DNA from: Escherichia phage vB_EcoM_ASO2A
Sequence record: MZ726793.1
Length of the DNA: 64,000 nt
Direction: 5' to 3' (one strand)
Part shown: positions 28,951 to 31,318 of the stretch, in pieces
Position numbering within the stretch: position 1 is the stretch's first letter
Layout of the letters: each line of letters starts with the position of its first letter
The notes under the pieces: generated by a model
The model's database searches: none
The model's input: the letters and a program-made list of their open reading frames with translations, nothing else
Told to the model about the DNA's origin: nothing
Position numbers and translations under genes: made by a program

Positions 28951-29156
28951 TTCATCAAGTGTGGTAACAGGGTCGTTGACTTTTGTTAAGAGGGGCTTGC
29001 ACTGCGGTAGTGTTAGAGACTACTTCTTCAGAGGTTAGCTACCAAAGAGGAAAAGGAATAGTCTCGGCTCAAGAACTTTTACGCTGAAAGTTGGGCTTGG
29101 TCTTAGAGAATGTAGCGGTTCTCTACAATCGTCAGCGTCTCTGTTACCACATTTAT

Positions 29157-29231
29157 GGCCCTGTAGCTCAATGGGAGAGCTGTCGGCTCATAACCGATAG
29201 GTAGCTGGATCGAAACCAGCCAGGGCCACCA
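29157..29231 (+). tRNA. tRNA anticodon CAU (Met or Ile2 if lysidine-modified)
   Basis: Manual cloverleaf: acceptor GGCCCTG/CAGGGCC, anticodon loop CTCATAA, T-arm GCTGG-ATCGAAA-CCAGC, encoded CCA. Confidence 0.8.
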
Positions 29232-29233
29232 AC

Positions 29234-29308
29234 GTCTTTATGGTGTAATGGATAGCACAGGAGTCTTCTAAACTCTTAGTCAAGGTTCGATTCCTTGTAA
29301 AGACACCA
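29234..29308 (+). tRNA. tRNA-Arg (UCU)
   Basis: Acceptor GTCTTTA/TAAAGAC, anticodon loop CTTCTAA, T-arm CAAGG-TTCGATT-CCTTG, CCA. Confidence 0.8.
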
Positions 29309-29501
29309 GAACATTTTAACATGAATTAGCTCAAGTGATTTGAACCCACTACTGATCATGGTGGCAGAGAATGAGGCAAGTATGTCAGACATTATAAACA
29401 AAGGCCACGGTTATATTAGAAGACATAAATGCTCGAAGAGCACCGTTCGTGGAGAACGGGGTTGGTGGAGTCACCATTCATGGTAAAATGTTTTAAAAAA
29501 C

Positions 29502-29541
29502 TATTGACAACTAACATTATTTTATGTTAGATTATAAGTAT
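29502..29541 (+). promoter_or_regulatory. sigma70-like promoter, conserved AACTATTGACAA element (copy 2)
   Basis: AACTATTGACAA-N17-TAGATT immediately before tRNA-Ser. Confidence 0.5.
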
Positions 29542-29632
29542 GGAAGGGCAAATCGACGTGGCGACGAAAACGGTCTTGAAAACCGCCGAGCTTGAAAGAG
29601 CCTTGGGAGTTCGACTCTCCCTCCTTCCGCCA
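29542..29632 (+). tRNA. tRNA-Ser (UGA), class II
   Basis: Acceptor GGAAGGG/TCCTTCC, anticodon arm CGGT-CTTGAAA-ACCG, long variable arm, T-arm GGGAG-TTCGACT-CTCCC, G73, CCA. Confidence 0.75.
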
Positions 29633-29637
29633 GATTA

Positions 29638-29723
29638 GGTAGATTGGTGAAATGGTAGCCACGACAGTTTGCTAAACTGTAGTCGGAAACGGCGTGTAGG
29701 TTCGAGTCCTACATCTACCGCCA
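29638..29723 (+). tRNA. tRNA-Ser (GCU), class II
   Basis: Acceptor GGTAGAT/ATCTACC, anticodon arm ACAGT-TTGCTAA-ACTGT, long variable arm, G73, CCA. Confidence 0.8.
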
Positions 29724-29853
29724 AGTTCTTTTTAATATAGCTTACTTTAGCAGAGTAAATCTTCGGCAAGTGGCGGTAACCACTTTACCGATAACTCATA
29801 GTTAGTGGTGTGAACACTGGCTATTTTAAAAAGAATTTAAATATTAGTATTTA

Positions 29854-29941
29854 GGTGAGTTAATTCCGTAGGGGTAGCGGGGCAGACTGTAAATCTGTTA
29901 TCATTGCGATTCGGGTGGTTCGACTCCATCACTCACCACCA
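29854..29941 (+). tRNA. tRNA-Tyr (GUA), class II
   Basis: Acceptor GGTGAGT/ACTCACC, anticodon arm CAGACTGTAAATCTG as in bacterial tRNA-Tyr, long variable arm, A73, CCA. Confidence 0.8.
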
Positions 29942-29946
29942 AATTA

Positions 29947-30032
29947 AGATGAGTTGGCTGAATGGTTTAAGCGGCGGACTGTTAATCCGTGTTCGAAAGA
30001 ACGATATAGGTTCAAATCCTATACTCATCGCC
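29947..30032 (+). tRNA. tRNA-Asn (GUU), atypical with long variable arm
   Basis: Acceptor GATGAGT/ACTCATC, anticodon arm GCGGA-CTGTTAA-TCCGT, extra hairpin GTTC-GAAA-GAAC in variable region, G73, CCA. Confidence 0.6.
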
Positions 30033-30039
30033 AGAATTA

Positions 30040-30116
30040 TGGACTTGTAGAGTTAAGGTAAACCCCCAGTCGCCAAGAGGCTTCTGGAATTGCAGGTATC
30101 GAATCCTGCCGAGTCC
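30040..30116 (+). ncRNA. tRNA-like element without canonical anticodon arm
   Basis: Acceptor GGACTTG/CGAGTCC and T-arm GCAGG-TATCGAAT-CCTGC (8-nt loop); central region folds as a CCAG...CTGG hairpin. Confidence 0.35.
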
Positions 30117-30123
30117 CAGCTTT

Positions 30124-30198
30124 GCTCCTATAGTATAATGGCTATTACAACGGTTTTGTAATCCGTGGATCTCTGTTCGATTCAGAGTGGGAGCACCA
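30124..30198 (+). tRNA. tRNA-Thr (UGU)
   Basis: Acceptor GCTCCTA/TGGGAGC, anticodon loop TTTGTAA, T-arm CTCTG-TTCGATT-CAGAG, CCA. Confidence 0.7.
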
Positions 30199-30471
30199 AC
30201 ACAACATTAAGGGCACTGTGATTGATCGTCGTATCCTGTGCACAAGGTCTGTTCGAAAGACAGTGTTCTTAGTATTGTGTTGATCACACAAAAAGAGTTA
30301 CCTGAAACTTGACCGGAGTAGGGTTGGATGGGGCAAAAGAAGAAGCGGCTCTCCCATCGACAGCAACGAAGAATAATATTTGACTTTGGTTTTGTATTAT
30401 TTTAAGTTAGCTTACCGAACGTAGGGCTAGTCACCCAACGGGATACTCGTCACTGTCCCACTCAATAAAAC

Positions 30472-30512
30472 TATTGACAACCAATAGTAAAATGTAGTAT
30501 AGTAAAGATGTA
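30472..30512 (+). promoter_or_regulatory. sigma70-like promoter, conserved AACTATTGACAA element (copy 3)
   Basis: AACTATTGACAA-N15-17-TAGTAT/TATAGT immediately before tRNA-Gly. Confidence 0.5.
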
Positions 30513-30514
30513 GG

Positions 30515-30588
30515 GCGTTCTTGGTGTAGCGGTAGCATTCCGTCCTTCCAAGTCGGCGGCACGAGTTCGATCCTCGTAGAACGCTCCA
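30515..30588 (+). tRNA. tRNA-Gly (UCC)
   Basis: Acceptor GCGTTCT/AGAACGC, anticodon loop CTTCCAA, T-arm ACGAG-TTCGATC-CTCGT, CCA. Confidence 0.75.
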
Positions 30589-30686
30589 AATTATTTAATA
30601 AAGGGTTGCCAGAAAACTTTCTCTTTTACTCATGGTTTTCTCCTTCTCTCACACCTCTTCTGGTTGCCCTTCATTAAATGATTTAT

Positions 30687-30762
30687 TGGTTTGTAGTGTA
30701 GTCCGGTAGCACACGACACTTTGACTGTCGTAGGTTTGGTTCAAATCCAGACAGACCAGCCA
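30687..30762 (+). tRNA. tRNA-Gln (UUG)
   Basis: Acceptor TGGTTTG/CAGACCA, anticodon arm CGACA-CTTTGAC-TGTCG, T-arm TTTGG-TTCAAAT-CCAGA, CCA. Confidence 0.75.
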
Positions 30763-30855
30763 TATAACAAAGGTGAGTCACTACCTCAAGTGTGAAGTTA
30801 AAAACGAGGAGCCGCCGAACACTTTCTTTTGCGGTGTACCTTTAGAATGTTATGA

Positions 30856-30932
30856 CGGAATTTAGCTCAGTTTGGTAGAGTGTACGCTTTGGGAGCGTAT
30901 TGTCGCAGGTTCGAATCCTGCAATTCCGACCA
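30856..30932 (+). tRNA. tRNA-Pro (UGG)
   Basis: Acceptor CGGAATT/AATTCCG (C1-G72), anticodon arm TACGC-TTTGGGA-GCGTA, T-arm GCAGG-TTCGAAT-CCTGC, CCA. Confidence 0.85.
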
Positions 30933-30938
30933 ATTAAA

Positions 30939-31012
30939 TGTTTCGTAGTTCAATGGTAGAACCCACGACTGATAATCGTGAGATACAAGTTCGATTCTTG
31001 TCGAAACAACCA
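30939..31012 (+). tRNA. tRNA-Ile (GAU)
   Basis: Acceptor TGTTTCG/CGAAACA, anticodon arm CACGA-CTGATAA-TCGTG, T-arm ACAAG-TTCGATT-CTTGT, CCA. Confidence 0.8.
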
Positions 31013-31014
31013 GT

Positions 31015-31084
31015 TTCCCGTTAGACTTACAGGATAAGAGTTCCACAATTTATTGTGACGCTGGTTCGAATCCAGCACGGGATA
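31015..31084 (+). ncRNA. atypical tRNA-like element with shortened anticodon arm
   Basis: Acceptor TTCCCGT/ACGGGAT (1:72 mismatch), D-arm, T-arm GCTGG-TTCGAAT-CCAGC; anticodon region CACAA-TTTA-TTGTG has a 4-6 nt loop; no encoded CCA. Confidence 0.35.
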
Positions 31085-31090
31085 CATAAT

Positions 31091-31169
31091 AGCGGGATAG
31101 AGGAGTCTGGTCGTCCTCGCCAGTTTCATATGCTGGAGATCATTGGTTCAAATCCAATTCCCGCCTCCA
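31091..31169 (+). tRNA. tRNA anticodon CAU (Met), 1:72 unpaired
   Basis: Acceptor AGCGGGA/TCCCGCC with A1xC72 mismatch, D-stem GAGG/CCTC, anticodon loop TTCATAT, T-arm ATTGG-TTCAAAT-CCAAT, CCA. Confidence 0.7.
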
Positions 31170-31284
31170 AATATCGCTTGCCAGCGGTATCTTTGAAGAC
31201 CTTGCCTGGTTCCTTCTAAGATGGAGGGGTGCGACTCCTTAACGCACAATTATAATAAAGCATTTCAAATTAACAGTATTTATT

Positions 31285-31309
31285 AGCCTCCTTATTGGAG
31301 GCTTTTTGC
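31285..31309 (+). terminator. intrinsic terminator after tRNA cluster
   Basis: Hairpin AGCCTCC-TTATT-GGAGGCT followed by TTTTTG. Confidence 0.6.
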
Positions 31310-31318
31310 TATCTATTG

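Follow-up and report, generated by a model that had tools for sequence, protein, structure and literature searches.

Long variable arms are, by textbook account, limited in bacteria to the tRNAs for leucine, serine and tyrosine (and selenocysteine), and a short variable loop is the structural norm of tRNA-Asn, without being a known identity element. Asparagine identity in bacteria consists of the three anticodon bases and G73, a set that can be transplanted into tRNA-Lys, and the pair U1:A72 of tRNA-Asn is a determinant for the GatCAB amidotransferase route, which direct charging by asparaginyl-tRNA synthetase (AsnRS) does not need (PMC9976931). In the same source G1:C72 together with G2:C71 is called 'absolutely conserved' in E. 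coli tRNA-Ser, and G73 is listed as a block to TyrRS and LeuRS (PMC9976931).

Among the systems closest to the case presented here are the nematode nev-tRNAs (PMC3333845) and the bacterial allo-tRNAs (PMC5389517), which keep Leu or Ser identity, were proposed or shown to misread codons, and lack the elements by which the codon's cognate synthetase recognises its tRNA; allo-tRNAs have 8/4 or 9/3 acceptor/T stems. Phage T5 provides the other point of reference. The E. coli tRNAs Lys(UUU), Thr(UGU) and Asn(GUU) are cleaved between bases 40 and 41 by AriB, the effector of the PARIS system; in tRNA-Asn the cut falls between U36AAUC and C41, and the second AriB monomer touches the D loop; T5 tRNA variants escape this nuclease (PMC12409363). 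The tRNA-Asn of T5 (NC_005859, 33952-34029) has the short form, with 78 nt and an anticodon stem in which two positions do not pair; this stem differs both from that of the host and from that of the long-arm allele which most T5-like phages carry at this locus.

The present study concerns a tRNA-Asn gene in a stretch of 64,000 nucleotides (hereafter the window) of Escherichia phage vB_EcoM_ASO2A (MZ726793.1), a phAPEC8-like myovirus of the genus Phapecoctavirus, Stephanstirmvirinae. Ten tRNAs were called in the window by ARAGORN, and across 29100-31200 the tRNA cluster matches that of Escherichia phage MRostami-2023b at 100% and that of phAPEC8 at 97% identity. The gene resembles that of T5 as a phage copy of a nuclease-cut host tRNA with an altered body and the same codons (PMC12409363), but where T5 has a short loop and a diverged anticodon stem, the window tRNA retains that stem in its host form, AriB site sequence included, and adds an extra arm. 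From nev- and allo-tRNAs it differs by a complete Asn identity set, by the lack of key Ser features and by acceptor/T stems of 7/5, and sequence features of the long-arm type argue against charging by identity mismatch as in those two groups. While tRNA-Asn itself is a known kind, a class II-like body of this tRNA in phages and tRNA clusters is a new variant; in the literature searched, a scope outside which most subscription journals fell, no description of a long-arm phage tRNA-Asn was found, and the gene is carried as plain 'tRNA-Asn' in hundreds of records.

Results

Anatomy of the tRNA-Asn gene

The initial annotation had described an Asn-anticodon tRNA with an extra hairpin at 29947-30032, which is one base too low (Table 1). 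Otherwise its description held: ARAGORN returned tRNA-Asn(gtt) with the anticodon at position 34, the Rfam tRNA model (RF00005) scored 62 bits (gathering score 29) and placed 12 bases of the variable region as insertions, and anticodon arm, G73 and encoded CCA are present in the sequence as noted. In the minimum-free-energy fold the tRNA forms a cloverleaf with the extra arm as a fifth hairpin. The whole-molecule folding z-score is -1.71, which we judge ordinary for tRNAs, so that the reality of the hairpin rests on comparison. The first acceptor pairs are G1:C72, A2:U71 and U3:A70, and the D stem has three Watson-Crick pairs (G10:C25, C11:G24, U12:A23) followed by G13/A22; together with G9 this is a core of class II type.

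Table 1. Positions of the tRNA-Asn gene, its parts and neighbouring tRNA-like elements in the window.
Feature	Position	Strand	Evidence
Complete tRNA-Asn(GUU) gene, 86 nt including encoded CCA	29948..30033	+	ARAGORN, Rfam RF00005; tRNA-Asn in relatives' annotation
Acceptor stem, 5' strand GAUGAGU; partner ACUCAUC at 30023-30029	29948..29954	+	Fold; 7/7 pairs covary in MAFFT alignment
D arm GCUG-AAUGGUUU-AAGC, preceded by U8 G9	29957..29972	+	RF00005, fold, alignment
G26 and anticodon arm GCGGA-CUGUUAA-UCCGU	29973..29990	+	18/18 against E. coli asnT (arm alone 17/17)
Anticodon GUU, loop CUGUUAA	29981-29983	+	Sequence, ARAGORN
Variable region, 15 nt	29991..30005	+	Fold; compensatory changes in homologues
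Variable-arm stem, GUUC with GAAC	29991-29994 / 29999-30002	+	Fold
Variable-arm loop GAAA	29995-29998	+	Fold
Unpaired GAU, 3' of variable stem	30003-30005	+	Fold
T arm AUAGG-UUCAAAU-CCUAU	30006..30022	+	RF00005, fold, alignment
Discriminator G73 (G at 30030) and encoded CCA	30030..30033	+	Sequence
Degenerate tRNA-Ser(UGA)-like element	29542-29628	+	Sub-threshold tRNA-Sec match only (37 bits, gathering score 47); no ARAGORN call
tRNA-Ser(GCU)	29638-29723		
tRNA-Tyr(GUA)-like gene	29854-29941	+	Rfam tRNA, 39 bits; no ARAGORN call
tRNA-like element with acceptor-like and T-arm-like parts, aberrant middle	30041-30120	+	Alignment with T5 'rna3'
tRNA-Met(CAU), 79 nt, last tRNA of the cluster	31091-31169	+	
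RyhB-like match, weak, probably chance	31256-31310	+	Rfam, 29 bits, gathering score 55

Comparison with host tRNA-Asn and with class II tRNAs

The four E. coli genes asnT/U/V/W share with the window tRNA the anticodon GUU, G73 and all 18 bases from G26 to the end of the anticodon arm, hence by inference the same synthetase. Since G26 and the anticodon arm copy those of the host, the sites for the host modifications queuosine-34 and t6A-37 are presumably kept as well. The remainder of the host molecule is different: its variable loop has 5 nt where the window tRNA has 15 nt and thus neither a short loop of 4-5 nt nor a class I body, its D stem has 4 bp, it has A9 and U1:A72, and 0/14 acceptor-stem positions are held in common.

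The initial annotation had regarded the long arm and G73 as serine-type features. Both are present, as are G1:C72, C11:G24, G9 and a D-loop sequence similar to that of tRNA-Ser; G73, however, is common to tRNA-Asn and tRNA-Ser and does not discriminate between them, and the shape of the arm points elsewhere (Table 2). With a stem of 4 bp and three unpaired 3' bases the arm has tRNA-Tyr geometry, not the geometry of tRNA-Ser with its longer stem and single unpaired base, and E. coli tRNA genes fetched by coordinate, serT/U/V among them, obey the same rule. The second acceptor pair is likewise not that of tRNA-Ser, in which G2:C71 is nearly universal; both Ser-type genes of the window begin with GG (G:C at 2:71). 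The comparison with host tRNAs which the annotation had proposed thus returned complete identity with tRNA-Asn over bases 26-43, and neither Ser-like arm geometry nor the Ser pair at 2:71. tRNA-Tyr(GUA) shares with the window tRNA, besides the arm, the 3-bp D stem and an anticodon of the queuosine family beginning with G34-U35, but differs in having A73 and A36 in place of G73 and U36.

Table 2. Variable-arm geometry and acceptor end in classes of distinct phage tRNA genes; arm values are the commonest of each class.
Class	Distinct genes	Variable stem	Unpaired 3' bases	Acceptor end
tRNA-Ser	104	5-7 bp (81/102)	1 (62/102)	G1G2/C71C72 in 91/104
tRNA-Tyr	61	3-4 bp	3 (32/46)	A73 in 60/61
tRNA-Leu	91	3-4 bp	2 (45/75)	A73 in 91/91
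Long-arm tRNA-Asn	81	3-4 bp	3-4 (65/77)	G73 in 81/81 (selection criterion)

E. coli SerRS is said, from work of Asahara and colleagues in 1994, to be sensitive to the length and orientation of the arm, and one additional pair in the variable stem of tRNA-Tyr reportedly conferred some serine acceptance (Himeno and colleagues, in 1990), so that minor serylation of the window tRNA may occur.

Comparative support for the extra hairpin

Because other tRNAs are mixed into the broad covariance-model alignment, pairs were counted in a MAFFT alignment of 17 sequences, which was made without fitting to any structure, and by folding each homologue separately. In the MAFFT alignment changes on both sides were found for all four pairs of the variable helix, with 97% of cells paired, and covariation was present in every helix including the acceptor stem; over the whole structure 99% of cells paired, compared with 69% for shuffles and no more than 44% after the partners were slid. 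Per-sequence folding of 81 distinct phage homologues recovered a hairpin at the variable region in 77, with a mean energy of -3.1 kcal/mol, where shuffled sequences gave -0.49 (Wilcoxon p 8e-15). These 81 homologues contain 42 different variable-stem sequences, and GNRA loops are strongly favoured in the 77 hairpins (GAAA 43, GUAA 6, GCAA 2, GAGA 1).

Individual members illustrate the exchange of pairs. In phi92 (Justusliebigvirus, 85 nt) the arm reads GAAC-GAAA-GUUC, with the two middle pairs flipped relative to the window; EPS7-like Epseptimavirus (86 nt) has AUCC-GCAA-GGAU, the T5-like AKFV33 (83 nt) GUC-GAAA-GAC and a Klebsiella Mydovirus (85 nt) GAGC-AUUA-GCUC. Between the window tRNA and those of two Phapecoctavirus relatives only three positions differ in total, all of them unpaired. 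This pattern of sequence change indicates that the variable hairpin is maintained by selection, and the hairpin GUUC-GAAA-GAAC recognised in the initial annotation is confirmed by it.

Distribution in phages and cellular genomes

The long-arm design is present in phi92-like phages, in Mydovirus and in most T5-like phages, and is a common, conserved phage design, not a one-off. In the T5-like group it is the majority form: the AKFV33-type long allele was found in about 290 GenBank records of the curated phage collection against 134 with the T5-type short allele, and T5 is the exception among its relatives. The initial annotation had named an architecture that is standard in related phages, with charging by Asn alone, as an outcome that would speak against its own proposal, and as far as the architecture is concerned this is what was observed.

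IMG/VR was scanned with a pattern of the host-type anticodon stem-loop followed by a T loop 15-30 bases on. Among the matches listed, 117/121 candidates were called tRNA-Asn(gtt) by ARAGORN, and at least 87 distinct long-arm sequences were present in the first 120 loci. When the scan was open to short and long spacing, 15 of the 120 loci listed had the long arm (12.5%), so that long-armed genes form about an eighth of the viral tRNA-Asn genes with a standard (host-type) anticodon stem among the loci listed; from cellular chromosomes the design is almost absent. The long-spacing pattern occurred in just 38 stretches in 185,579 bacterial and archaeal species, each represented by one genome; several were false positives, among them those in Saprospiraceae, which are ordinary tRNA-Asn genes of 75 nt. 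Of the genuine cellular cases that could be placed, most belong to clusters of tRNA genes or to large arrays, with several metagenome-assembled contigs among them, and some, on short contigs, are the sole tRNA in the fetched stretch. In Micromonospora and Verrucosispora (L132, L133, L137, L162) the fetched 8-kb stretches hold 23-36 tRNAs each, with one long-arm tRNA-Asn of 89-90 nt as the only Asn tRNA of the array. When 5,426 E. coli genomes were searched by BLAST with the window tRNA-Asn, the sole match, 35 bases in yobD, was due to chance. The long-arm tRNA-Asn is accordingly a widespread variant, nearly confined to phages and to tRNA gene clusters or arrays. Two other cellular contigs with tRNA clusters (L131, L141) carry a tRNA-Lys(UUU) of 88-90 nt.

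Discussion

Amino-acid identity and rival explanations

From the observed structure, identity elements, conservation, covariation and distribution we infer that the window tRNA is best read as a working, Asn-charged tRNA of the long-arm variant, at a probability of roughly 0.7. With G34, U35, U36 and G73 its Asn identity set is complete; it would be charged by the host AsnRS through these bases, would decode AAC and AAU, and would supply decoding capacity to an AT-rich phage in which Asn accounts for 5.6% of codons (AAT 29.3 and AAC 26.6 per 1000 in the window). Its G1:C72 replaces the U1:A72 of the host, but among 89 distinct long-arm homologues U1:A72 is the commonest first pair (56/89), and G73 is present in 83/89 before filtering; among the acceptor ends listed as most frequent in phage Ser or Tyr genes, none starts with U1:A72. 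Of 22 phage loci that cover 15 or more isotypes, 21 have no Asn tRNA besides the long-arm GUU gene.

A dual or serine identity, in which SerRS, blind to the anticodon, would read the long arm, G73 and acceptor stem and Asn codons would sometimes receive Ser, could draw on the five Ser-type elements of the molecule (long arm, G73, G1:C72, C11:G24, G9) and on the 17/89 long-arm homologues, mostly T5-like, that have both G1:C72 and G2:C71. We consider it quite unlikely, for A2:U71 stands here in place of a pair 'absolutely conserved' in E. coli tRNA-Ser (PMC9976931) and present in most phage tRNA-Ser, the arm is of Tyr type, and the first pair commonest in the family is that of tRNA-Asn. In the near-complete phage sets the long-arm gene is, with one exception, the sole Asn tRNA, substantial misreading would harm nearly every protein at the Asn frequency given, which makes heavy misreading implausible, and the design is stable over hundreds of phage genomes; a deliberate misreading of Asn codons as Ser at a low level may nevertheless be achieved through such a dual identity. 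That the RNA acts outside translation, as a tRNA-shaped decoy or regulator, for instance by titrating a nuclease or as a source of fragments, is very improbable in view of the perfect cloverleaf, the complete Asn set, the encoded CCA, the canonical T loop, the covariation reaching into the acceptor stem and, again, the 21/22 loci. The authors of the PARIS study suggested that overexpressed viral tRNAs might inhibit AriB (PMC12409363), and the cluster does contain non-standard tRNA-like RNAs, as the degenerate element directly after the tRNA-Asn is homologous to T5 'rna3'.

A further reading is an Asn-charged tRNA whose arm has no role of its own, the hairpin being frozen from a class II ancestor and kept for core folding only. 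As Asn identity needs only the anticodon and G73 (PMC9976931), one or two mutations could convert a class II tRNA: in tRNA-Tyr an anticodon change from GUA to GUU together with A73 to G73, in tRNA-Ser a change from GCU to GUU. The Tyr-like arm geometry fits such a route, long-arm Asn genes have G9 (36/89 against 4/94) and a D stem of 3 bp (38/89 against 8/94) more often than short Asn genes, a tRNA-Tyr-like gene ends 6 bases upstream, and Tyr is among the commoner upstream neighbours; moreover, many further class I isotypes carry extra hairpins (58/928 where the locus has a long-arm Asn gene, 10/430 elsewhere, about 2-6%), which is compatible with a loose constraint on phage tRNA shape. Yet comparison of D arms with co-resident tRNAs yields no consistent donor, some long-arm genes resemble E. 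coli tRNA-Asn in D arm, G26 and anticodon arm, and the GNRA preference is strong. The long arm is, besides, about six times as frequent on Asn as on other class I isotypes (15/120 loci listed against 10/430, p 2.5e-5, in samples not fully independent), and its near-confinement to phages and tRNA clusters suggests niche-specific selection, so that a frozen arm appears unlikely.

If the preferred reading of Asn charging only is right, then AsnRS, EF-Tu and the ribosome tolerate the extra arm, which would be useful in tRNA engineering, and the question is what selects the arm in viruses, with escape from tRNA-targeting immunity as the obvious candidate. Partial charging with Ser would instead make it a natural example of misreading driven by a virus.

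Possible role of the arm

The arm would make the phage tRNA sterically unlike host tRNA-Asn beside the 3' strand of the anticodon stem, and would leave intact the anticodon arm that synthetase and modification enzymes require. It emerges three bases 3' of the AriB site, so that steric escape from this host nuclease is plausible, and Thr(UGU), another AriB target, also has frequent long arms in phages. Against this stand an AriB site sequence identical to that of the host, the lack of a long arm in all 80 phage tRNA-Lys(UUU) genes of the sampled loci, this being the main target of AriB, and extra arms on Cys, Trp and Glu tRNAs, which are outside the AriB targets reported in PMC12409363. The T5-like phage Bas34 is also PARIS-sensitive despite a tRNA-Asn of its own, long- or short-arm (PMC12409363). 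Escape from AriB is therefore put forward as possible though doubtful. Because the T5 gene is of the short form, the amber-suppressor and PARIS-rescue experiments with T5 have no bearing on the long-arm type.

On phage tRNAs that normally have a short loop the extra hairpin follows one format, with 3-5 bp, a GNRA loop and 3-4 unpaired 3' bases. In IMG/VR viral loci L009-L271 it was found on Thr(UGU) (11/73), Cys (9/67), Trp (6/69) and Ile(UAU) (12/22), as well as on a few Glu, Met, His and Gly tRNAs, and on none of 112 Lys and 151 Arg tRNAs. A conversion of phage tRNAs (Asn, Thr(UGU), Cys, Trp and others) towards class II as a general, undescribed counter-defence strategy is a doubtful proposal that we advance as speculation; the arm would alter the shape of the tRNA next to its anticodon and D stems, and the agents evaded may be host tRNA-cutting defence enzymes or the phage's own activity in depleting host tRNAs. 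Stabilisation of weak, AT-rich stems by the arm was also considered and is ruled out, since the GC content of acceptor, T and D stems does not distinguish the long from the short form of the phage Asn gene. In loci L009-L271 the class I/II rule is also broken in the other direction, as many phage tRNA-Leu are predicted at 74-76 nt and without a long arm, for instance 17/68 Leu(UAA) at 74 nt and 14/60 Leu(UAG).

Origin and neighbouring elements

The initial annotation had offered two origins, a derivation from the adjacent tRNA-Ser(GCU) or an Asn tRNA with an insertion. A recent descent from tRNA-Ser(GCU) finds no support: the two genes are identical at 50/86 positions (58%) and at 10/17 in the anticodon arms, a tRNA-Tyr-like gene lies between them, A2:U71 and the arm geometry are not those of tRNA-Ser, and the anticodon arm with G26 is that of host tRNA-Asn at 18/18 positions. 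Of the second proposal the Asn part stands, with the full identity set, but the insertion is not a simple one, because the core is class II-like (G9, 3-bp D stem with G13/A22). With no consistent nearest isotype for long-arm Asn D arms among co-resident tRNAs, no claim of a Ser or Tyr origin is made. Four genes (L056, L037, L114 and that of the Klebsiella Mydovirus) combine the hairpin with a D arm, G26 and anticodon arm like those of E. coli tRNA-Asn, and to judge by their sequences an arm was added here to the body of an Asn tRNA, or so it looks; the long-arm Asn family is either old and diverged or has arisen more than once.

The tRNA-Tyr(GUA)-like gene upstream is longer by three bases in the segment that joins position 9 to the D stem, has a variable arm of 15 nt, and is annotated as tRNA-Tyr in some relatives and as a pseudo-tRNA in others. 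The element downstream of the tRNA-Asn aligns with the T5 stable RNA 'rna3' ('putative tRNA-like RNA') as well as with the corresponding sequence of AKFV33 and phi92, and both Demerecviridae and Stephanstirmvirinae have the pair of Asn gene and rna3, irrespective of the long or short form of the Asn gene. The weak RyhB-like match was found beyond the tRNA-Met(CAU), which is 'Pseudo-CAT' in phAPEC8. The tRNA-Ser(UGA)-like element has the form GGAAGGG...CUUGAAA...long arm...CCUUCC, and in the phi92 cluster an annotated pseudo tRNA-Ser(TGA) lies upstream of tRNA-Ser(GCT).
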